Positions 4,311-51,573 of a DNA stretch of 64,000 nt are shown here, piece after piece. Within the stretch, counting starts at the first letter, position 1, and each line of letters starts with the position of its first letter. Source of the DNA: an uncultured Candidatus Saccharibacteria bacterium. Its GTDB lineage: Bacteria > Patescibacteriota > Saccharimonadia > Saccharimonadales > JACDBH01. The notes under the pieces were generated by a model that saw only the letters and a program-made list of their open reading frames with translations, had not been told where the DNA came from and did not search any database. Location: positions 6,190 to 70,189 of the forward strand of contig CAZXYN010000004.1 in the NCBI GenBank assembly GCA_964644965.1, written 5' to 3'. A program made the translations under genes and the position numbers.

Positions 4311-4376
4311 AAAAACTTGCAAAAACCACCCCTGTAAAAGGCCAGGCCTTTTACAGATAGGTTGTTTGCAATTTTT
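4311..4376. repeat. REP-like extended palindrome (core CTGTAAAAGGCCAGGCCTTTTACAG at 4332-4356)
   Basis: The same core recurs at 49513, 50195 and 51524. The flanks AAAAACTTGCAAAAACC and GGTTGTTTGCAATTTTT are also inverted. It lies just downstream of the 969-aa gene. Confidence 0.8.
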
Positions 4377-4397: not shown

Positions 4398-7307
4398 TTA
4401 GGTTGCTCGGTATACCCGCGTCCGAGTCACTCGCCAGACGCAAATACTGACGACGATTAGGGTGCTGGCAGCAAGGATATATGGAGTGAGTGAAGTACCC
4501 GTATCAGCAAGGCTACTGCTGCCTAAGACAGCTAAGCCCACTGGATCTTTAATCTGACCGGTCACGGGGTCAAGGTCAAGACTGCCGTTGTCAGTGATTA
4601 CGTAGGTCAGCCTCAGAGCTGGCTGGCCAGCGTAGGTGGTCTGAGTAATAGTGGCACCCGTGATATCAGAATAAGTGCTCTCTATAGGGTTGTACTTTCT
4701 AGCTTTGACTTCGTCTGGCTCCAGGTTGGTCATAAAAGTCAGGCTGACTTCGTTATCAGTTTCCGTGGTAGTAAAGCAGAAATCTACCAGACCAAGGGGG
4801 TAGTGATAGGCGCTGTCTTGAGTAGTAAGGCTGCTTTCCTTAGCGGTGGATGAGCAGTTAATTTCAGTGCCTGCGGGAGTTTCTAGCCGGATGGGTTTGC
4901 CGTTTTCCGAGCTTGCGAGGCTGGCGGTGTTAGGATCCTGCTCTGGGTCAGGAATAGGTATGGTTGTACCGGGTAAAGTACCAGTGTATATGGCGATATT
5001 ATTGATGGGCAGAGCAAAGATGTCGCCAATGTCGTAAAAAGCATCTTCAATGGTAGCCATGTCATTTTCAGGATAAGTAACCACGAGTGCCCGGATGGTG
5101 GTCTGCTCATCAACCGGACCGTTCACGGCGAATGGTAGGGTCAATGGGTAACTCTCTCCCGGAGAAAGGTCTGGTATGAGCATGCTGCAGTAATACCCTA
5201 CCCCCAAATGATAGGCAAAGGCGGGCATGCCCCCTAATTCTCCTGTGTAATCATAACAGGCGTAGGTTTCTCCGTCGCTATACATTCCGTTATCTTCGTC
5301 ATAGGGAACAGCCAGTTCCATACTGTCAGGGACAACTATAATAAGTTCGACGCTATCTTCCTCATAGTTAATGTCATTACTAACGTTGGTGGTCGTAAAT
5401 GTGTATCTGGCTTCCTGACCCTGTATGAGACCTGGAGGTGCTAGGGTGATGCCCAGGCCAAGGTCAACTGATTCGGGACATGTGCCGGTGGTAAATGTAG
5501 CATCACTGCCATAGCCCGTACCAAGACCATTTGAGGCATAGGCTCGGTAATGATAGGTTGTTTCACAGCCTAGCCCATTTAAGGAGACGAGCTGAATACC
5601 CTGCTCATAGCTGTCAGCATCATAATTACCCCAGGTGTAATCCGTATTCGCGCCAAACTGCACACCGGCAGATGACAACGTGCCACCTGAGTCTATAATA
5701 TCGATCTCGACAATAGCTGATTTATCAGATATTGTAACGACGCCACCGGTGACCACCTGCGGCAAACTACAGCCGTGGCCGCTATCATTGATCGTCCAGT
5801 TGTATGTATCGATAATGTATTGGCGCTGAACAGCACTAGTGCAGTAGGCTTTGCCATATGCGTCAAGTCTAACGCCGTTTTGGAGGTTTTGTTCTGACCA
5901 ACCGTCTAGAATAGCATCATACGTTTCAGAACTTATGCCAGAGTCACCGAGCATGTATGATGCATCTGTAACACTAGTCATATCCCAATCAGATATATCC
6001 TGATTGAATGAATAGGCACTCTCGAACGTTCTACTCATGCTGGTCACACTACTAACGTCCCAGCTGGAAATGTCTTGGTTAAAATCTGTTGTTTCCCTGA
6101 ACATGCTTGTTATATTAGTCACACTACTAACGTCCCAACTGGAAATGTCTTGGTTAAATGGAGAACGTTCGAACATTCCGTCCATAAGAGTCGCACTGCT
6201 GACATCCCAACCGGAAATGTCTTGGTTAAAAGCGTTGTTGCGCCTAAACATCCACCTAAATGTCGTGACATTGCTAACATCCCAATCAGAGATGTCCTGA
6301 TCAAAGACCAAGGCACTGTTAAACATATGTGCCATGCTGGTTACGCTACCGACCTCCCATTTGGAAATGTCTTGATTAAATGAATCTGCTACCTCAAACA
6401 TGGATGACATATTTGTAACAGCTGACGTGTCCCACTCGTCAAGTGGCTGGTTAAAGCTGGCAGCTCCTTGAAACATGCCAGACATATTCTTAACCTCAGA
6501 CACATTCCAATCATTAAGCGGCTGGTTGAAGCTAGTTGCATACACGAACATTTGTGACATACTCGTCACTGCCGACACGTCCCACTCGTCAAGTGGCTGG
6601 TTGAACGAATCAGCACCATCGAACATTCGGTTCATAGATGTAACTTTGCTGACATCCCAGCCGTTGAGCGAATAATTGAAGGAGTCGGCTTCTCTAAACA
6701 TAAAACCCATGCTTGTGACGTTACTAACATCCCAGTCGGAAATGTCTTGATTGAATGACCGTGCAAGCGTGAACATAGCATACAGATCAGTAACGTTACT
6801 TAGATCAGGATTATCAGAGGCGGTTAGCTGCATGTTGGCGGCTCCGAAGAATGCCTTGTGCATAGTTGTCCACTGAGTGTCACCCCATTGCTGAACCTCC
6901 AGAAGCTTGAGTTTGTCATGATCGTCGTTGAAGTAAACGCGGCGGAATGTGCCGTCTATAACCACGCTGTAGGTGCCGGGCGAGTCGTAGCTGCAAGTGT
7001 AATTACCTGTCCGGCCGGTGGCTTCAAACACACCATCGTTATTACAGTCGACACTGTAATTGTAGCCGGCACCGGTCGTCGGGATCATAAACTGGTTGTT
7101 AGCGCTGCTGCCGGCATTATCGGTCTTTACCAACATTACAAATACATCGTTACCGTGCGGGCCGTTGTAAGGACCGGAGGCGTAGGTTAGACCTCCCACC
7201 AGCGTATATAATAAAGCAGCACCAATAACCGACAAACCAAGTAATATCTTGGTACGAGATAGCCGTTTGGTTTTGGCTTTTTGTACTTTTGTATTGAACA
7301 GCTTCAT
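4398..7307 (-). CDS. BspA/DUF285-type leucine-rich-repeat surface protein with a LADTG sortase sorting signal
   Basis: It has an N-terminal signal/TM segment and about 11 repeats of the form FNQDISxWDVSxVTxMxxMF. The C-terminus is LADTG followed by a hydrophobic stretch and an RVTRTRVYRAT tail. Confidence 0.85.
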   Translation of the reverse strand: MKLFNTKVQKAKTKRLSRTKILLGLSVIGAALLYTLVGGLTYASGPYNGPHGNDVFVMLVKTDNAGSSANNQFMIPTTGAGYNYSVDCNNDGVFEATGRTGNYTCSYDSPGTYSVVIDGTFRRVYFNDDHDKLKLLEVQQWGDTQWTTMHKAFFGAANMQLTASDNPDLSNVTDLYAMFTLARSFNQDISDWDVSNVTSMGFMFREADSFNYSLNGWDVSKVTSMNRMFDGADSFNQPLDEWDVSAVTSMSQMFVYATSFNQPLNDWNVSEVKNMSGMFQGAASFNQPLDEWDTSAVTNMSSMFEVADSFNQDISKWEVGSVTSMAHMFNSALVFDQDISDWDVSNVTTFRWMFRRNNAFNQDISGWDVSSATLMDGMFERSPFNQDISSWDVSSVTNITSMFRETTDFNQDISSWDVSSVTSMSRTFESAYSFNQDISDWDMTSVTDASYMLGDSGISSETYDAILDGWSEQNLQNGVRLDAYGKAYCTSAVQRQYIIDTYNWTINDSGHGCSLPQVVTGGVVTISDKSAIVEIDIIDSGGTLSSAGVQFGANTDYTWGNYDADSYEQGIQLVSLNGLGCETTYHYRAYASNGLGTGYGSDATFTTGTCPESVDLGLGITLAPPGLIQGQEARYTFTTTNVSNDINYEEDSVELIIVVPDSMELAVPYDEDNGMYSDGETYACYDYTGELGGMPAFAYHLGVGYYCSMLIPDLSPGESYPLTLPFAVNGPVDEQTTIRALVVTYPENDMATIEDAFYDIGDIFALPINNIAIYTGTLPGTTIPIPDPEQDPNTASLASSENGKPIRLETPAGTEINCSSTAKESSLTTQDSAYHYPLGLVDFCFTTTETDNEVSLTFMTNLEPDEVKARKYNPIESTYSDITGATITQTTYAGQPALRLTYVITDNGSLDLDPVTGQIKDPVGLAVLGSSSLADTGTSLTPYILAASTLIVVSICVWRVTRTRVYRAT
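5935..6830 (-). repeat. About 11 tandem repeats of roughly 75 bp encoding the DUF285/LRR units
   Basis: The repeated DNA phrase gtcccaxxxggaaatgtcttggttaaa and the corresponding protein repeats are both visible. The boundaries are approximate. Confidence 0.7.
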
Positions 7308-7473: not shown

Positions 7474-7557
7474 GTACTCACGTGCAAGAGGGTAAGCAAG
7501 CGCCACGGGCTGAGCTTAAAGAGCTCACCCGTAAAGCGCCCTCTTGCACGTGAGTAC
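7474..7557. terminator. Long hairpin (19-bp perfect stem GTACTCACGTGCAAGAGGG, 46-nt structured loop), possibly the terminator of the ABC operon
   Basis: The arms at 7474-7492 and 7539-7557 are exact reverse complements, and the loop contains a second imperfect hairpin. It starts 7 nt after the permease stop. There is no clear U-tract. Confidence 0.35.
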
Positions 7558-14201: not shown

Positions 14202-14534
14202 TTAGCCCATGAAAGCAAAGTATGCCGCACCGGCAAGCGCAGCTACAACCAATAATACGAGCACAATAACAGGTAGTGCACTCTTCTTTTTGGCTGGTTC
14301 TACGGGAGCCGCCACGGTTGCTGCTGGCTCTACCGGGGCTGGAATTGGCTCTGTAGTTGGCTCTGCTGCTGGAACTGCTTCACTGGCAGGAGCTGGGGCT
14401 TCTGGTGCAGGTGTTGGCTCTACAGCTGAAGCGGGCTCACTAGCAGGTGCTGGAGCTGTTGGCTCCACTGGAGTCGTAGCTACAGGATCTTGAGTTACTG
14501 GTTGTTCTTCGGTTGATTTGTTTTCTGGATCCAT
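14202..14534 (-). CDS. Pro/Ala-rich tail-anchored protein (110 aa)
   Basis: It has PAPA-type repeats followed by the TM segment LPVIVLVLLVVAALAGAAYFAF. Confidence 0.5.
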   Translation of the reverse strand: MDPENKSTEEQPVTQDPVATTPVEPTAPAPASEPASAVEPTPAPEAPAPASEAVPAAEPTTEPIPAPVEPAATVAAPVEPAKKKSALPVIVLVLLVVAALAGAAYFAFMG

Positions 14535-14662
14535 AGCGGAGGCATCCTTTTCTTAAATTACTCTTTTATATTGGCGTCGAATCCATTGTACAGCATAAGC
14601 GTGTTATCTTGAAAGCCATGCCAGTTGCAGACTTCTAACTGGTATACTGGGTAACAATAATC

Positions 14663-15493
14663 ATGTTGATACGATTCGCGCAGCGACTGTTTGTTCTGAC
14701 GCTAGGAGCAGGCATTATTTACCTCACTGTCAGGTACTTTTTTCCGTTTTTTGATAACCAAGTACCACAAGCCTTAGCATTACTTGCAACTTATATCTTC
14801 ACGGCCTACCTATTCATACCAGCTGTCATTCGATTTGTCCGCTTGTTCTGGGCACCAAATCACATACCTCTGTACTGCGTCACCCCTGATGGATTTGCCA
14901 GTGATCCGATAAACATCGGCGTAATCGGCGACCGCAATCAGCTCAAAAGAGCCATGGAAAAAGCCGGCTGGTTCACAGCCGACAGGCGTACTCTACTTAC
15001 AATTCTTAGACTTGGACGTTCAATCCTACTAAGACAGCCATACCAAACAGCACCGTTTAGTAGCCTATACCTATTTGGTCGCAAACAAGATATTGGTTTC
15101 CAGAAACCGTTCAAAGATAATCCGTCATACCGCCACCATGTTAGGTTTTGGGCCTGCAACATCGAAACACCAGAAGACTTTCATGAGGATGTAAATTTCT
15201 GGCAGCGGTTTCACCGTCCTAGCGTAGACAAGGTTTCACGCCAACTCTGGGTCGGCGCCGCATCAAAAGATGTCGGGATTGTTCCTATCAAACACAACGC
15301 CCAGCTGACCCATATGATCCACCCCGACACCAATGCCGAGCGCGAGCTGATTGTCCACGACCTACGCATGAGCCACTCGGTGGCAAAGACCATTACCGAA
15401 CGCGTCCACAGTGGCCTGTCACTTCCTAACCGAGCCCTCCGAGGCGTCCTAGAAGCCGACGGCAAGGTGAAGATTTGTATATTAAAAGATTAA
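14663..15493 (+). CDS. LssY-like C-terminal-domain membrane protein
   Basis: It has two N-terminal TM segments. The stretch DPINIGVIGDRNQLKRAMEKAGWFTADRRT resembles the LssY_C family. Confidence 0.65.
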   Translation: MLIRFAQRLFVLTLGAGIIYLTVRYFFPFFDNQVPQALALLATYIFTAYLFIPAVIRFVRLFWAPNHIPLYCVTPDGFASDPINIGVIGDRNQLKRAMEKAGWFTADRRTLLTILRLGRSILLRQPYQTAPFSSLYLFGRKQDIGFQKPFKDNPSYRHHVRFWACNIETPEDFHEDVNFWQRFHRPSVDKVSRQLWVGAASKDVGIVPIKHNAQLTHMIHPDTNAERELIVHDLRMSHSVAKTITERVHSGLSLPNRALRGVLEADGKVKICILKD

Positions 15494-15500
15494 AAGCCGT

Positions 15501-15720
15501 GTTCTTTCAATAAAGAACCAAATTACTACTTCTCCTTGTTGAGAAGTAGCCAAGAAACACTGGGCCAACTTCTGACTTGATGTATCTGTTAGTGCAAACC
15601 AGGCTCGCTGCGGAACTCACCAAAAACAATCCACTGGATTATTTTTGGCTCAAACAGTCCTCGCGCCCAAGGGCACCTCGTTTGCACAACATCTACTCAG
15701 GTCAAAAGCCGATGCCCAGG
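15501..15720 (+). ncRNA. Candidate structured RNA, paralogue of the 39.1-kb RNA (the strand call is tentative)
   Basis: The 5' module GTTCTTTcaatAAAGAAC-caaatta-CTACTTCTCcttgttGAGAAGTAG is about 80% identical to 39208-39275. It is followed by an imperfect hairpin of about 160 nt (arms 15560-15599 and 15680-15720). Confidence 0.4.
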
Positions 15721-15745
15721 ATCAAATAATGTAAGCGAAATTAAT

Positions 15746-15864
15746 AAAAAAGCTCCCCATAGGGAGCAAAGCCCCGTAGTAGACTTTCGAGTTTGCCTGC
15801 CCTATTGGGCAGGCATAGTCCGCCATAAGCGGAGTCTCGAAAGCTCACTACAGGGCAAAGCAAT
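15746..15864 (-). ncRNA. Orphan sRNA of about 120 nt, bounded by a consensus promoter and an intrinsic terminator
   Basis: A 21-bp closing helix (GCCCUGUAGUGAGCUUUCGAG / CUCGAAAGUCUACUACGGGGC) encloses two hairpins. The RNA ends in GCUCCCuaugGGGAGC followed by U6. Confidence 0.55.
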
Positions 15865-15870
15865 AAGTCA

Positions 15871-15899
15871 ATTATACTACTTATGCTTAAAAATGTCAA
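15871..15899 (-). promoter_or_regulatory. Consensus promoter TTGACA-17-TATAAT
   Basis: The minus strand reads TTGACAtttttaagcataagtagTATAAT. No ORF lies downstream. Confidence 0.7.
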
Positions 15900-15991
15900 T
15901 TCAGTTTTGTAGGTCGGATTTATTCCGAGCTCAAAACTTCCTTATTCAGGAAGGAGCAGCCCGACAAAATGTATTCCATTTTGCCGGCGCG

Positions 15992-16019
15992 ATGAGGAAA
16001 CCTATCTCGGTTTCCTCAT
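15992..16019 (-). terminator. Hairpin after the 675-aa gene
   Basis: The sequence ATGAGGAAACCgagataGGTTTCCTCAT forms an 11-bp stem 3 nt after the stop. It has no U-tract. Confidence 0.4.
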
Positions 16020-16022
16020 TAC

Positions 16023-18050
16023 CTAGTAATAATACCAGCGCGAAATGCCAGCAGTATCGGTAGTATCTATGATTTTCCGCGGCTCCCCGCCCTGAATATT
16101 CATAACGTAATCTGCCGTCTCGACACCGTCGGCCACGCGATAGACAATGTAGTTCTTGTTGAGCCAGTACAGTGGCATCTTGAGCCCGCCGCGCTCGACA
16201 AGCATCTTTTCCTCACCCTGATCATTGTCTCTGGCAATCAGCACACCTTTGCCGTCTCGGTCATCAACCCATAGGCTGAATGTTTTGTCCTGATTGTCTA
16301 AGTACATGTGGTTTGTCTGTGATGCTGGTGGGCTTGTTTCGGCAGCCAGTGGCGAGCCGATTACGAACTCGTACCACTTGTCGTTGTCGCCAGCGAAGTA
16401 CAGAGTGTCGTATGAGCTTCTGATGATTGAATAGACCTCTTTGTCTAGGATTGTTTGGATATTTGAGCCATCTGGATCGCTAACATACATAGCGGCATTG
16501 ACCTCCTGAAAGACATTTGACGGTGCATAATAGACGCGGTCGTTGGCCATCATGACATCATTGAATGAGTTTGAGCCAGCCAGCTCCTTGGTGTCTGAAT
16601 GATCCTCGTTATTGAAGCTCATCAGGCGGTGGCGCTTGGGATCGGTACCGCTGGCACCAGCAGCTATCTTTACATAAATCAGCCGGCCTGATCTTGACCA
16701 ACCTACTACTTGAATCTGCTCTGATTGGTCTATGCGCACCAAATCACCGTTGTCTGTGTCTAGGATGTAGAGGGTACTGAGCAAATAGCCGCTTTGGTTG
16801 CGAGTATTTTCACGGGTGGCTACGTAAGCAGCGAAGTTTTTGCTAGGATGAGGTACTAGAGCTATATCATCACGTTCGTAGCCAGAGCCACCGACAATTC
16901 GACGTTCGTTTTTGCCATCTACGTCTACGGTGTAGACATCATATTTGCCAGATCGTTTTGAGACAAAGGTGTGTTTGCGGGCTGGCACCATTTCGATGCT
17001 CTGTGTCTCCTTGTTATTGACTGTAATATTGATGGTTTCGTTACGGTAGTCAGCAGCGGTGATGGCAACACTAACCTGAGCGCTGTCATCGAGTTCGGCT
17101 GTATCAAGAGCTAGAACAAGCTTGCCGTCTTCGTCTGAGCTGGCGTTTCCTTCGCCCGAGGTGGCTTCTGCCTTGGCAATTGGCTTGCCGCTAAAGGCAT
17201 CACGAATCAAGAATGTGTACTGCGAGCCGACTGGTGTCACCTGGTACTCGCCCAGCGGATTGCTGCCCCAGCCGACAGTAATTGTACGATCCTGTGATGC
17301 AAAGGCACGTTTTTCGATACGCAGGGTTGTCTCGCCTAGGCGAACCTTTTGGAGCCGAGCGACGCCTGCGCTATCTGTTTGAGCTGAGGCATTAGCGGCC
17401 GTAACTTTGACGTTTTTGAGTGGCTGCAAGGTGCTGCTATCTAGTACTGTCAGTTCGATGGTTGAGCGGACTTGAGCGGTGTTAAGAATAAAGTAGCGAG
17501 TCGTTGGAATCAAGGCTAGAGCTAGCATCAGCGCCGTGGCGCCACCCAAGATTCCCCAGCGACTCTTTGGGTTGCGCCAGAGTTTTCTGATAAATAGGCT
17601 TATTTCGCTCTCTGGGTTTTTTGTTTTTCCAGCTGAGTGTTTGGTAGATTGCTCGTCAGGTTCGTCAATATCTAGCTCTTCTTCAACCATGATATCGTCT
17701 ATAACTTCGTCGACTTCTGCGTCATCGGCTTCGCCTTTTACCTCTGGTGCTGGCTGCTCCTCAACTACAGGGTTCTCGGTAGACTCAATCACCGGGTCAG
17801 TTTCTATCTCTAGCGCCACGCCGGTTACTGGTTCAACTACCTCCTCTATCGGCAGTTCGGGCGCATCTGGTATTTCGGATGTTTCGGAAAGTGCAGTGTT
17901 ATTTGAAACTTCGGCTGCTTCTTCTTCGATATCATTTACGACATCGTCGCTCAAAATATCATCAGAATTGTCAAAAGATATCTGCTCATCAGCCGCCGAG
18001 ACGCCGTCTTTGGAGTCAGAAAATTTAGAAGAGTCTTTTGAACTGCTCAT
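16023..18050 (-). CDS. Membrane-anchored protein with an acidic N-terminal tail, a CarboxypepD_reg-like domain and a TolB/PD40-like beta-propeller
   Basis: The N-terminus is rich in D and E, followed by one TM segment. PD40-like blades are visible (SGKYDVYTVDVDGKNERRI, SGRLIYV...). Confidence 0.65.
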   Translation of the reverse strand: MSSSKDSSKFSDSKDGVSAADEQISFDNSDDILSDDVVNDIEEEAAEVSNNTALSETSEIPDAPELPIEEVVEPVTGVALEIETDPVIESTENPVVEEQPAPEVKGEADDAEVDEVIDDIMVEEELDIDEPDEQSTKHSAGKTKNPESEISLFIRKLWRNPKSRWGILGGATALMLALALIPTTRYFILNTAQVRSTIELTVLDSSTLQPLKNVKVTAANASAQTDSAGVARLQKVRLGETTLRIEKRAFASQDRTITVGWGSNPLGEYQVTPVGSQYTFLIRDAFSGKPIAKAEATSGEGNASSDEDGKLVLALDTAELDDSAQVSVAITAADYRNETINITVNNKETQSIEMVPARKHTFVSKRSGKYDVYTVDVDGKNERRIVGGSGYERDDIALVPHPSKNFAAYVATRENTRNQSGYLLSTLYILDTDNGDLVRIDQSEQIQVVGWSRSGRLIYVKIAAGASGTDPKRHRLMSFNNEDHSDTKELAGSNSFNDVMMANDRVYYAPSNVFQEVNAAMYVSDPDGSNIQTILDKEVYSIIRSSYDTLYFAGDNDKWYEFVIGSPLAAETSPPASQTNHMYLDNQDKTFSLWVDDRDGKGVLIARDNDQGEEKMLVERGGLKMPLYWLNKNYIVYRVADGVETADYVMNIQGGEPRKIIDTTDTAGISRWYYY

Positions 18051-27427: not shown

Positions 27428-27631
27428 TTACCTTGATACAGTGGTTTCACAAGCCGGACAGGAGATGGTTGTTGGCGTCAGAACAGCATCAACTAATTGC
27501 TTACAAAAAGGACAGGTCACGCACGGCATACGGGTTGGATCATCGGCTGCAATTCGATCATGATCGATACCACATAGTCCGTCACATTGTGATTTCTGAT
27601 GTTCGTATTGTTCGGTGGTTAGATGGCTCAT
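27428..27631 (-). CDS. 67-aa zinc-ribbon mini-protein
   Basis: It carries the motifs CDGLC, CVTCPFC and CPAC. It overlaps the upstream gene by 4 nt. Confidence 0.55.
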   Translation of the reverse strand: MSHLTTEQYEHQKSQCDGLCGIDHDRIAADDPTRMPCVTCPFCKQLVDAVLTPTTISCPACETTVSR

Positions 27632-29070
27632 TTTGATTTGCCCGTTGTCTGCTTTGATTCAAAAGCATCACAGTTTCCGCAGTACTTATTTACCCTGCTC
27701 TTATTATAAGCGTAGATGATGGACTTTGAACCACACTTACAGCTGCGCTCTTTGTCCTTAACCAATGTATCACCCGGCTTGGCGCCAACTTTTTCTGCCA
27801 GTCTCTTGCCGTCGGCGCTAAATGGATTCACGCTCTCAAGACCACAGCTACCACCACTGCAAAAACCACCACCCGGAGCCTGTCTCTCTACTTCTTGCAT
27901 CAGTGAGAATGCTTCTTCATACGCACCTTGCATTTGCAGCTGATTGACCTGGTGTAGACCCTTGGCAGTACGTTCATCAAACATCTGCTCAGCAACACCT
28001 AGGTCCTGCCTGGCTATATCAAGCAGTAGTTTTTTCACAAAATCTTCGACATGCACTGGTGCTTTTCGCTTGTCAAAACCTTCCTCTGCTAAATCCAGAA
28101 CGAAAGAAGCGACTGTGTCAGCTGTGTCAGCTAGTCCTTCCTGTCGAACTAACGCATCTGCCCTGAAATTTTCATAGTCTTTCTCATATCCGTCTGGTAC
28201 GACTTCACCCATAAAGATATTTGTGCACCATTCTTCACCTGCTACTTCATCGAGCTGACGGGCAAAGTCCATCAAATCATCATCTACAAGCAGCTGATTG
28301 CCATGAAGCTCGGTCTTGTCCATGTGAACAGTCTCGACACCACGTCGTCTGAGCGTCTCTTGGATTACCCAGTGGCTTATGTATATGCCCGGCAGGCCAA
28401 TCTGTTCCTGCAGTCTATCGCCTGTATCTTGATCAAAGCGCATATCGCGGATCATGACCTTTTCAATCTCTGGCACATAGCCGTCATAACCTCTGTGAGG
28501 CTTACCTTCGCTCATATCATATCGATAATCATTGATAGCTTTGTCAGTACATTCAGAAATTGTTCTGATACCAAACTGCGCCATGGCAAATGAGCCAATT
28601 TTGCGGATAATTCGAGGGGTCTCGTCTTCTACCCGTTCGTTCACCCGCCGTACTACTTCCTCGTGGCTACCACCAATCGGACGGAGCGCGTTCTCTGTCA
28701 TCTGACGGATAGACAAGCCATGTGAATAAAAATCACCAGTCTCCTCATCAAAATAATGCCGAGTAGCCGGGAAATATTCTGGACGCTTCTTGCGAAACCA
28801 TTCTGCTGTCAAACGGCGACAATCAAGCCGCAGACCTTCGAGCCGCTCGGAATATTCCTCGCTGTTTGCGCCAAATATATCCCGCGCTTCCACAACTCTC
28901 TCGGCAGTAGAAAGCGCATCCAGAGCAAGGGGCAGCTCCGCATCATGGCCCGATTCATGTAACTGTTCACGCCTGCGCACAAGCTGCCAAGCTTCACTAC
29001 GAACTTGCTCGCGTTCTGCTGCAAGCTCAGGGATTGTATCAACAGAGATATAATTGGTGGCTTCGGACAC
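27628..29070 (-). CDS. Hypothetical 480-aa protein with a C-terminal Cys4 zinc ribbon; first gene behind the riboswitch-like leader
   Basis: The start codon is GTG. The C-terminus reads CKCGSKS...YCGNCDAF. I recognise no family. Confidence 0.7.
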   Translation of the reverse strand: MSEATNYISVDTIPELAAEREQVRSEAWQLVRRREQLHESGHDAELPLALDALSTAERVVEARDIFGANSEEYSERLEGLRLDCRRLTAEWFRKKRPEYFPATRHYFDEETGDFYSHGLSIRQMTENALRPIGGSHEEVVRRVNERVEDETPRIIRKIGSFAMAQFGIRTISECTDKAINDYRYDMSEGKPHRGYDGYVPEIEKVMIRDMRFDQDTGDRLQEQIGLPGIYISHWVIQETLRRRGVETVHMDKTELHGNQLLVDDDLMDFARQLDEVAGEEWCTNIFMGEVVPDGYEKDYENFRADALVRQEGLADTADTVASFVLDLAEEGFDKRKAPVHVEDFVKKLLLDIARQDLGVAEQMFDERTAKGLHQVNQLQMQGAYEEAFSLMQEVERQAPGGGFCSGGSCGLESVNPFSADGKRLAEKVGAKPGDTLVKDKERSCKCGSKSIIYAYNKSRVNKYCGNCDAFESKQTTGKSK

Positions 29071-29072
29071 TT

Positions 29073-29101
29073 AAAAACCCTCTGCTTCCGCGAGCAGAGG
29101 G
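29073..29101 (-). terminator. Attenuator (expression platform): CCCUCUGCU-cgcgga-AGCAGAGGG followed by U5, ending 2 nt before the GTG start
   Basis: The minus strand reads CCCTCTGCTcgcggaAGCAGAGGGTTTTTaaGTG. The only Shine-Dalgarno candidate (GAGGG) forms the 3' arm of the stem. Confidence 0.7.
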
Positions 29102-29103
29102 TT

Positions 29104-29270
29104 AGTCCATCCCAGCCTTACGAGTTGCCGTGATGGTTTTTGCTCCTGCTCGGGAGACCCCGGTAGTAGAACAAGTTCACTACGGGGCTTGCTTTAATGC
29201 TGTGTCGGGCTATAACCGTAGCGGCACTGCGGAGGAATTTCACCTCACTTCCAGCTTGTTTGTTAATACT
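29104..29270 (-). promoter_or_regulatory. Cobalamin-riboswitch-like aptamer
   Basis: The minus strand contains AAGCUGGAAGUGAGGUGAAAUUCCUCCGCAGUGCCGCUACGGU, which matches the conserved core GGGAAxxxGGUGxxAAxUCCxxxGCxGxCCCGCxACUGU. It also contains CCCGAGCAGGAGC, which resembles the B12 box CCCGAxGCCAGGAGAC. This is a by-eye match only. Confidence 0.5.
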
Positions 29271-49504: not shown

Positions 49505-50245
49505 AAATTTTCAAAGGCCAGGCCTTTTACAGATGAGAAAATTACAAGTTTGCCAATTCGTGCTTGAGTTCGCCCAACATATTTCTGTTTTCTTCGTAGT
49601 CAGATACAAACTCCAGGTAAGCCTCTCGGCTGGCGTGTTGCTGTATCACCCTTTTGGTTTGAAGCCATTCTGGTTCGCTCGCATTGCGTATATGACTAAT
49701 GCTTGAGTATGGAAATCTTTTCCAGCTACGAGGATTAAGGTGTATATACCTTGAAACGTGCAATAAATAGGCATCCCTACTGATAATCGCTGCTTTGAAT
49801 CTATTCTCAAACAAAGGACCCGTACGCTCGTATTTGTGGTTGAAGTACGTCGAATAAGCCACCATGACGCTTTTCATTAACTGAGACAAAGTTCCCTGCG
49901 TTGCTTGATAAAACAACAGATGAAAATGATTATCCATCAAGCAATAAGTCAGAAGCTCCAGATCACCTCTGTAATGTGGATAGGTATAGTTTTGTTTATT
50001 GGTTACGGGTTTGATCGACAGGTGTCTGGACAGAAGGTATAGGAAATAATCCTTATCTGCAGCTTCGCGGAAGATAAGTCCCTTTGCTGCACCCCTGGCA
50101 TAGACATGATAATAGCTGTCCCCGGTGTCAAAACGTACTGTATTCCTCGACGGCATAGGCAAATTATAGAGAAATCGACAAAACTTGTAAATCACCTATC
50201 TGTAAAAGGCCAGGCCTTTTACAGATAGGGTTTTTGCAAGTTTTT
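49505..50245 (-). mobile_element. RAYT unit: REP-associated tyrosine transposase gene bracketed by REP palindromes
   Basis: The REP core AAAGGCCAGGCCTTT lies at 49513-49527, immediately 3' of the gene. The full 35-bp palindrome CCTATCTGTAAAAGGCCAGGCCTTTTACAGATAGG lies at 50195-50229, 5' of the gene. Confidence 0.8.
49542..50156 (-). CDS. REP-associated tyrosine transposase (RAYT; IS200/Y1-transposase-like)
   Basis: The likely start is the ATG at 50156 (MPSRNTVRF...). The HUH motif is LMDNHFHLLF, followed by TGPLFENRFKAAIISRDAYLLHVSRYIHLNP, which carries the catalytic Tyr. Confidence 0.85.
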   Translation of the reverse strand: MPSRNTVRFDTGDSYYHVYARGAAKGLIFREAADKDYFLYLLSRHLSIKPVTNKQNYTYPHYRGDLELLTYCLMDNHFHLLFYQATQGTLSQLMKSVMVAYSTYFNHKYERTGPLFENRFKAAIISRDAYLLHVSRYIHLNPRSWKRFPYSSISHIRNASEPEWLQTKRVIQQHASREAYLEFVSDYEENRNMLGELKHELANL

Positions 50246-51506: not shown

Positions 51507-51573
51507 GTAAAAGTGTAAAACCTCTATCTGTAAAAGGCCTGGCCTTTTACAGATAGGACTTTCGCAAGTTTTT
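51507..51573. repeat. REP copy (core CTATCTGTAAAAGGCCTGGCCTTTTACAGATAG at 51524-51556)
   Basis: This is a 33-bp perfect palindrome with the family flank CGCAAGTTTTT. It lies downstream of paralogue B. Confidence 0.8.

Follow-up and report, generated by a model that had tools for sequence, protein, structure and literature searches.

A Y-shaped RNA body in a small Saccharibacteria transcription unit as a probable copy of a mobile palindromic DNA element

A 64,000-nucleotide stretch of a Candidatus Saccharibacteria genome (contig CAZXYN010000004.1; the whole of this stretch is called the window here) contains, on the minus strand at positions 15899-15746, a consensus promoter followed by a non-coding, strongly structured RNA of about 120 nt, part of which recurs in the leader of a gene with a cobalamin riboswitch. 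An earlier note on this DNA took the unit for an orphan small RNA (sRNA) and offered two accounts of the likeness: either part of the aptamer had been duplicated into a free-standing decoy or sponge, or both sites carried an unrecognized shared RNA module. The question is what the shared helix is and whether it ties the sRNA to the riboswitch. Our analysis indicated that the Y-shaped body and the leader hairpin are very probably two copies of a mobile palindromic DNA element resembling the miniature inverted-repeat transposable elements (MITEs) of bacteria, carried as a neutral passenger and without a link to the riboswitch.

The minus-strand sequence 15866-15744 formed a basal helix of 11 bp joined, across a one-nucleotide irregularity, to an inner helix of 9 bp with two hairpins inside, followed by the terminator; the fold in the earlier note was thus reproduced, its 21-bp helix being the sum of the basal and inner parts. 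The minimum free energy was -70 kcal/mol, versus -35.6 +/- 3.7 kcal/mol for dinucleotide shuffles (z = -9.4), and none of 200 shuffles was as good. Within this fold, the inverted repeat and a two-arm pattern match delimited a long-form palindromic element of 84 nt (15772-15855, minus strand), with basal arms CCCTGTAGTGA and TCTACTACGGGG, an inner stem formed by GCTTTCGAG and CTCGAAAGT, and hairpins at 15833-15819 and 15815-15794. The terminal inverted repeats were 21-nt arms (15856-15836 and 15791-15771) with a short non-coding interior between them.

The arm motifs GCCCYGTAGTGA and TCTACTACSGGGS were found at 15856-15845 and 15783-15771 in the sRNA locus, at 29188-29177 and 29170-29158 in the leader, and nowhere else in the window. 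The two copies had 23 of 25 arm positions in common, and the combined two-arm pattern had no match in 100 shuffles. No Rfam 15 family matched the long or the short form in scans of both sites and their relatives at gathering and permissive thresholds; these scans returned AdoCbl-II, RNase P, tRNAs, a group I intron, and DUF3800-II only, and no known family explained either site. The unrecognized module postulated in the earlier note is therefore real, statistically solid, and absent from Rfam, but the evidence set out below points to mobile DNA and not to an RNA domain in its own right.

In the leader, the shared helix lay beyond the riboswitch proper. The AdoCbl-II (cobalamin) aptamer at 29268-29192 on the minus strand (39.1 bits; gathering score, 36.5) was the sole Rfam family found at gathering thresholds in the whole window, and the 31-nt short form of the element, GCCCCGTAGTGA-ACTTGT-TCTACTACCGGGG (29188-29158, minus strand; two arms and a 6-nt loop), began four nucleotides past the end of the aptamer model, without overlap. 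Orthologous leaders were taken from in front of genes homologous to that of the 480-aa protein downstream of the riboswitch, giving six leaders including that of the window. An identical hairpin was present in the L029 leader (loci in other genomes are designated by L numbers), and none was present in the other four (L134 to L137), which read ACAGCAGTTAAG joined directly to TCTCCCGAGCAGGAGC, i.e., ...ACAG(CAGTT)AAG and then TCTCCCGAGCAGGAGC. Two of the leaders without the element, L134 and L135, still exceeded the AdoCbl-II gathering score. The native leader hairpin TCTCCCGAGCAGGAGC (29142-29157, minus strand) was outside the element, and its CGAGCA and GA did not vary among the six leaders, including the four without the element. 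A second part of the similarity claimed earlier, UUUGCUCCC-loop-GGGAGC versus UCUCCC-loop-GGAGC, fell outside the shared module: all six orthologues had CUCCCGAGCAGGAG as a native part of the leader, whether or not they carried the module, and GCUCCCUAUGGGG was native to the sRNA locus in relatives lacking the module. Because CUCCCGAGCAGGAG was present in all six leaders, the likeness of the leader hairpin to the sRNA terminator is coincidental.

At the sRNA locus, relatives preserved the site without the element. The gene pair on either side of the unit was syntenic in these genomes, and five loci (L003, L005, L008, L129, and L130) kept the promoter, the short conserved start, and the hairpin and lacked the Y-shaped 84 nt. 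The RNA body was not conserved at the orthologous locus, the first ~12 nt and the short hairpin being all that was held in common. In L005 and L129 the empty site was exact: ATTGCTTTG was followed immediately by CTCCC, with a single CTTTG, whereas the window read CTTTG, the 84 nt, and CTTTG again (direct repeats at 15856-15860 and 15767-15771, minus strand). Written out, TATAATTGACTTATTGCTTTG-(CCCTG...ACGGGG CTTTG)-CTCCCTATGGGG in the window corresponded to TATAATTGACTTATTGCTTTGCTCCCTTTGGGG in L005 and L129 or, with the repeats set apart, ...ATTG CTTTG (CCCTGTAGTGA...TCTACTACGGGG) CTTTG CTCCCTATGGGGAGC corresponded to ...ATTG CTTTG CTCCCTTTGGGG. The term orphan sRNA consequently holds in part: the conserved promoter and short hairpin define a small unit, but the structured body of ~85 nt is an inserted repeat.

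The search for further arm copies that the earlier note had suggested was extended beyond the window. A scan with GCCCYGTAGTGA-N(1-61)-TCTACTACSGGG over one representative genome per species, for which about 4 chance matches were estimated, gave at least 118 genome loci, almost all of them in Patescibacteria, the candidate phyla radiation (CPR), with the arm consensus GCCCYGUAGUGA...UCUACUACSGGG. The lineages with copies included Saccharibacteria, many Parcubacteria/Paceibacterota, and Doudna-, Kazan, Peri-, Magasanik-, Uhr-, Falkow-, and Kerfeldbacteria, and among the matches listed several genomes carried two to four loci each. The arms were nearly always paired (142 pairs versus ~45 apparent solos, many of which were diverged pairs or forms of 123 to 141 nt). 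Interiors ranged from 5 to 61 nt; short forms of 5 to 13 nt dominated, and a second mode at 40 to 61 nt had a conserved inner stem of ~9 bp and one or two hairpins, with stems that covaried between copies. Copies measured 29 to 85 nt overall, mostly ~31 to 35 nt. No two-arm match was found in 2.9 million viral contigs.

About 9 of the at least 118 contigs carried labels from outside the CPR (L015, L107, L125, L047, L103, L115, L077, L091, and L093). The labels of these metagenome-assembled genomes (MAGs) were Bacteroidia/Bacteroidota for three, Gammaproteobacteria for three, and Victivallales, Phycisphaerae, and Humimicrobiaceae for one each, and one of the contigs was a 195-kb Bacteroidia contig. 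Either these are CPR contigs placed in the wrong bin, or the element has truly spread outside the CPR. In addition, a group I intron (67 bits) was located at 4562-4795 of the Saccharibacteria contig L074, ~100 nt from an element copy.

The surroundings of the copies carried marks of insertion at the DNA level. Direct repeats of at least 4 nt flanked 30 of 124 copies, versus 2.8 expected when upstream and downstream flanks were shuffled between copies; they took the form NNNG, CCC...GGGG, NNNG, with CAAG, CTTG, TATG, and CGGG as examples. Among the long forms, 22 of 45 had such repeats, the sRNA copy in the window with its CTTTG/CTTTG being one. In the more distant relative L037, a long element had 75 of 85 positions identical to the window copy (88%), between flanks that were ~57 to 60% identical, and sat at the homologous position (CCCTTG, element, CTTGCTCGGTATGGG); the matching empty site in L130 was CCCTTGCTCGCTATGGG. 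Diverged copies, too, kept the hairpin, through compensatory changes. Tandem arrays occurred in L038 and L124 and inverted pairs in L066 and L087, and in four loci (L054, L062, L083, and L128; un-nested comparators, L041 and L098) a copy was nested in the first hairpin loop of another. Furthermore, approximately 33 of 126 copies lay within open reading frames (ORFs) of at least 100 aa, 16 in sense and 17 in antisense. The RecA of L115 had an 11-residue in-frame insert, KPRSELGSTTG, relative to Escherichia coli RecA (3cmu), the predicted peptide across the insert including FSFAKPRSELGSTTGGEIK; the leucyl-tRNA synthetase (LeuRS) of L043 had an insert of 10 to 11 aa, PGSRTKFTTGR, relative to 3ziu, which was the antisense reading of the element; and another in-frame copy was within a UvrA-like ORF. 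In L065, helix P12 of a bona fide RNase P RNA (RNaseP_bact_a, 264 bits) consisted of the long form. Flanking duplications, exact empty sites in two unrelated host RNAs, nesting and arrays, and in-frame inserts in essential genes are the defining properties of a MITE-like palindromic element.

These observations are consistent with the following course of events. An 84-nt non-coding element would have inserted between the start of the unit and its hairpin, duplicating the 5-nt target CTTTG; its terminal inverted repeats would form the long closing helix and its interior the two hairpins, turning the product into a Y-shaped RNA of ~120 nt. Transcription would start ~7 nt after TATAAT, pass through 11 to 13 nt of native leader and the 84-nt element, and stop at the GC hairpin and U6. 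The leader hairpin at 29188-29158 would be a short-form copy that was inserted independently 3' of the aptamer. More generally, we infer that the family spread by transposition, as selfish DNA whose copies would be tolerated where RNA helices vary (P12 of RNase P, the riboswitch linker), with in-frame inserts of ~11 codons tolerated in surface loops of essential proteins. In the sRNA, the element would be a neutral passenger. The likeness of sRNA and leader is no sign of a regulatory link, because copies are scattered through CPR genomes, essential genes, and RNase P RNA.

Several points weigh against a mobile element of this kind. The window and L037 are both filled, at homologous positions of the same transcript, while closer relatives are empty, which requires a target hot spot (CTTG or CTTTG before CTC) or repeated precise loss. 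Short forms seldom had a clear flanking duplication, 8 of 79 having a repeat of at least 4 nt. In ~0.9 Mb of fetched loci, no arm pair flanked a gene, and the same loci gave no transposase or autonomous element bounded by these ends. Expression of the sRNA is a prediction from its sequence. Finally, the two 12-nt arms, 24 nt in all, were identical across very deep CPR lineages; such identity is unusual for a MITE and could reflect a host function, a conserved mobilizing or binding factor, or frequent exchange among CPR genomes. We propose, as a tentative idea that may well prove too broad, that the copies form an undescribed CPR-wide family of mobile palindromes of ~30 to 85 nt with arms identical across dozens of candidate phyla, colonizing essential genes and RNAs. 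If so, the invariant ends would point to a conserved mobilizing or binding factor common to CPR bacteria or, alternatively, to the hairpin having been domesticated as a functional module at the RNA or DNA level.

The idea that the hairpin is a functional RNA module (a structural plug-in domain, for example, or the place where a protein conserved in CPR bacteria binds), which was recruited into several RNAs and through which the sRNA acts, has several features in its favor. The helix sequence was strongly conserved across candidate phyla, and in further diverged copies the pairing was kept by 23 compensated double changes (GUAC/GUAC, GUAGC/GCUAC, and AUAGU/ACUAU, for example); the long form had a conserved three-way-junction architecture with covarying inner stems; the orientation was sense in three structured RNAs (the sRNA, the riboswitch leader, and RNase P); and L037 kept the long form in the same transcript. 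However, intergenic copies showed no orientation preference relative to neighboring genes, either strand being equally frequent, and copies also occurred in frame within ORFs. Sense and antisense RNA folded equally well, with a mean difference of 0.4 kcal/mol, as a palindrome in DNA should; together with the random gene orientation, this argues against selection on a particular transcript. In addition, flanking duplications and exact empty sites indicate insertion at the DNA level, the module was missing from most orthologues of both host RNAs, and inspection showed no K-turn features (a 3-nt bulge with tandem G.A pairs). A recruited RNA module is thus an unlikely explanation.

A different mode of mobility, in which the copies are single-strand hairpin repeats of the repetitive extragenic palindromic (REP)/RAYT or IS200/IS605 type moved by a Y1 (HUH) transposase and not cut-and-paste MITEs, agrees with the small size of the hairpin units, some of which stood in inverted pairs (L066 and L087) or arrays (L038), and with the lack of a DDE partner in the ~0.9 Mb of fetched loci. 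The tetranucleotide GTAG, which is typical of REP sequences, was present within each arm, but it was inside the stem and not 5' of it. Moreover, flanking direct repeats of 4 to 5 nt are unexpected for Y1-transposase elements, and about a quarter of the copies were within ORFs, whereas REPs are extragenic. We consider this mode of movement improbable, and a MITE-like element is preferred.

The proposed origin of the sRNA as a duplicated piece of the cobalamin riboswitch, acting as a decoy or sponge that cross-talks with the leader, draws on the shared arm positions, on the confinement of the arms to two sites in the window, and on the pairing that the arms of one RNA could in principle form with those of the other, but it is scarcely credible: the module lies outside the aptamer (29188-29158 versus 29268-29192), is missing from four of six leaders that remain recognizable riboswitches and from most relatives of the sRNA locus, and recurs in at least 118 loci of unrelated context; the sRNA region 15500-16100 had no cobalamin match even at E <= 10; and pairing in trans is unlikely because the arms of each copy already pair with each other in a very stable helix.

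Several other identities were tried and rejected. The 3' flanks of the copies in L048 and L099, which resembled GGGGTTCAAGTCC, hinted at an origin from tRNA or tmRNA, and some element copies were 18 to 120 nt from tRNA genes; ARAGORN and Rfam found no tRNA or tmRNA overlapping any copy. A K-turn module, as in the P12 of archaeal RNase P, did not fit the consensus, whose sole irregularity was GA opposite UCU, seen in the folds as one bulged U or as a 1x1 loop. Loop E, hammerhead, and group II domain V were set aside on inspection: tandem G.A pairs and conserved junction nucleotides were both absent, and the interior varied in length. A DNA-uptake sequence was rejected on arms that were almost never single and on the presence of two copies only in 64 kb, and a phage vector was rejected on the zero matches in viral contigs.

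The unit that hosts the long copy is a small, clade-restricted transcription unit with a sigma-70-type consensus promoter, as judged from its sequence features. The -35 hexamer TTGACA (15899-15894, minus strand) and the -10 hexamer TATAAT (15876-15871), separated by 17 nt, formed the only 12/12 promoter match within 14500-17000, which bears out the promoter described in the earlier note. TTGACA-17-TATAAT was kept in L003, L005, L008, L037, and L129, and L130 had TTGACA-17-TATACT, the promoter thus being conserved in six orthologous loci. It is very probably active, because it is conserved across relatives whose neighboring protein is only 56 to 66% identical. The predicted host transcript start TGACTTATTG (15861-15870, minus strand) was identical in L005 and L129. 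A hairpin native to the locus, GCTCCC-TATG-GGGAGC (15767-15752), gives the predicted intrinsic terminator its 6-bp GC stem, and a T6 tract (15751-15746) follows. The unit was placed between convergent genes, with a 675-aa CarboxypepD_reg/DUF5050 protein upstream (16023-18050, minus strand) facing an LssY_C protein (14663-15493, plus strand), and homologues of the 675-aa protein were found in Candidatus Saccharibacteria/Saccharimonadales. A permissive Rfam scan of 15500-16100 gave nothing credible, the best match being Phe_leader at 23 bits (gathering score, 55).

The homologous hairpin GCTCCCTWTGGGG was present in L003, L005, L129, and other relatives; it was followed by U6 in L129 as well and by an A-run instead in L003, L005, L008, and L037. 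Because the L129 hairpin also has U6 after it, the ancestral unit is predicted to be a strong promoter leading almost directly into a terminator hairpin, giving an RNA of ~35 nt. The promoter-plus-hairpin pattern had one match in JGI metagenomes (L129), and the native unit was absent from L132; its predicted range is a narrow clade. Copies of the motif GAGGACUGUUUGA/GAGUUCCRCAG at 15660-15605 of the window were shared with a further structured region of relatives, into which transcription probably reads on in some of them.

The surroundings of the unit showed further features. On the minus strand, 3' of U6, a structured stretch at ~15595-15690 had the layout GUGCAAAC...GAGGACUGUUUGA-hairpin-GAGUUCCGCAG...GUUUGCAC. 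Its motif also appeared at the matching places in L008 and L037, inside a long stem, with a U-run after it in L008, and the stretch could be the body of a longer non-coding RNA from the same promoter in relatives. Permissive Rfam scans of window 15500-16100 and of the L008 intergenic region found no family for it; the L008 region gave weak miRNA-precursor matches far below gathering scores and no credible family. One to three units of ~40 nt (AAATTACCCTTGGCTCAAAAC..CACTTGACAGTGG), absent from the window, were located 3' of the 675-aa gene in L003 (6095-6290), L005 (6075-6300), and L008 (6065-6100). In the closest relative, P0002 (66% identity; L138 and L139), the contigs of two independent assemblies stopped ~35 nt past the 675-aa gene and are therefore uninformative about the unit; repeats in this intergenic region may have broken the assemblies.

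On the riboswitch side, AdoCbl-II preceded the gene for the 480-aa protein (riboswitch and gene, 27628-29268, minus strand), and a terminator-like hairpin with a U-run abutted the start codon. The protein had a Cys-rich C terminus and no Pfam domain, was found at 54 to 69% identity in many Saccharimonadales, and appeared soluble, with no hydrophobic 19-residue segment in a Kyte-Doolittle scan; this arrangement suggests an uncharacterized B12-related function. The cobalamin aptamers of L136 (~720-790) and L137 (~700-830) contained large lineage-specific insertions and were below the Rfam gathering score.

Other palindromes were seen in the window. A second repeat family consisted of near-perfect palindromes of ~65 nt at 4312-4376, 50180-50244, and 51509-51571, with the sequence AAAACTTGCAAA..CTGTAAAAGGCC and, past the center, GGCCTTTTACAG..TTTGCAAGTTTT, flanked by an A-run and a T-run. 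Two of them were between ORFs, and 50180-50244 ran into the predicted start of ORF 49542-50195. From their appearance they could be shared terminators working in both directions or a further palindromic element. At 7474-7557, between two minus-strand genes, a perfect 19-bp stem (GTACTCACGTGCAAGAGGG/CCCTCTTGCACGTGAGTAC) enclosed 46 nt and was flanked by GAGCG...GAGCG; it may be another inserted palindrome.

Reading the shared helix as a MITE-like element removes the inference of an sRNA decoy tied to B12 sensing and illustrates that an RNA structure of great stability and textbook-like form may, in a CPR genome, be an inserted repeat. The family would serve as a marker for the recent dynamics of genomes from organisms regarded as streamlined, as a lead to a mobilization system conserved across Patescibacteria, and as a natural experiment on tolerance of insertions in the C-terminal loop of RecA, the N terminus of LeuRS, P12 of RNase P, and the linker after a riboswitch aptamer. 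It is also a likely cause of contig breaks and of mis-called small ORFs and sRNAs in CPR MAGs. Our search of the literature on CPR/Patescibacteria RNase P P12, palindromic elements, MITEs, and the arm sequences found nothing relevant.

Among known systems, Correia/NEMIS of Neisseria, ERIC/IRU of enterobacteria, and RUP/BOX of pneumococci are small MITEs with terminal inverted repeats, target-site duplication, and no ORF, which insert in transcribed regions and add a large hairpin to the host RNA. The CPR family resembles them in its terminal inverted repeats, duplications, small size, lack of an ORF, insertion in transcribed regions, and the hairpin that it adds to host RNA. Each of the named MITEs is typically confined to one genus or family and linked to known insertion sequence families, with a duplication that is usually TA or longer, whereas the CPR family spans a superphylum and has the duplication NNNG, often CAAG or CTTG. 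REP/BIME sequences and REPINs, which are associated with RAYT, are extragenic hairpin repeats of ~30 to 40 nt with GTAG and are not known to have target duplications; the CPR copies are likewise hairpins of ~30 to 40 nt with GTAG, sometimes paired or arrayed, but they occur in ORFs and show duplications. The unit itself resembles orphan genes for trans-acting sRNAs in that a non-coding transcript, located between convergent genes, has a conserved promoter at one end and a hairpin with a U-run at the other; it differs in that the structured body is an insertion at the locus and is not conserved, the ancestral RNA being ~35 nt. The Rickettsia palindromic elements (RPEs) are 100 to 150 bp long and abundant in both intergenic and protein-coding regions, an RPE-7-like insert reported in PheT being one example (PMC1779305). 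In both systems, short non-coding palindromic repeats are dispersed in a reduced bacterial genome and have entered protein genes, here those for RecA, LeuRS, the UvrA-like ORF, and others. The CPR family is smaller (29 to 85 nt), has arms identical across many CPR candidate phyla and flanking duplications of 4 to 5 nt, and has no sequence relationship to RPEs. It appears to be undescribed and, in kind, to be a new member of the bacterial MITE or RPE-like class.

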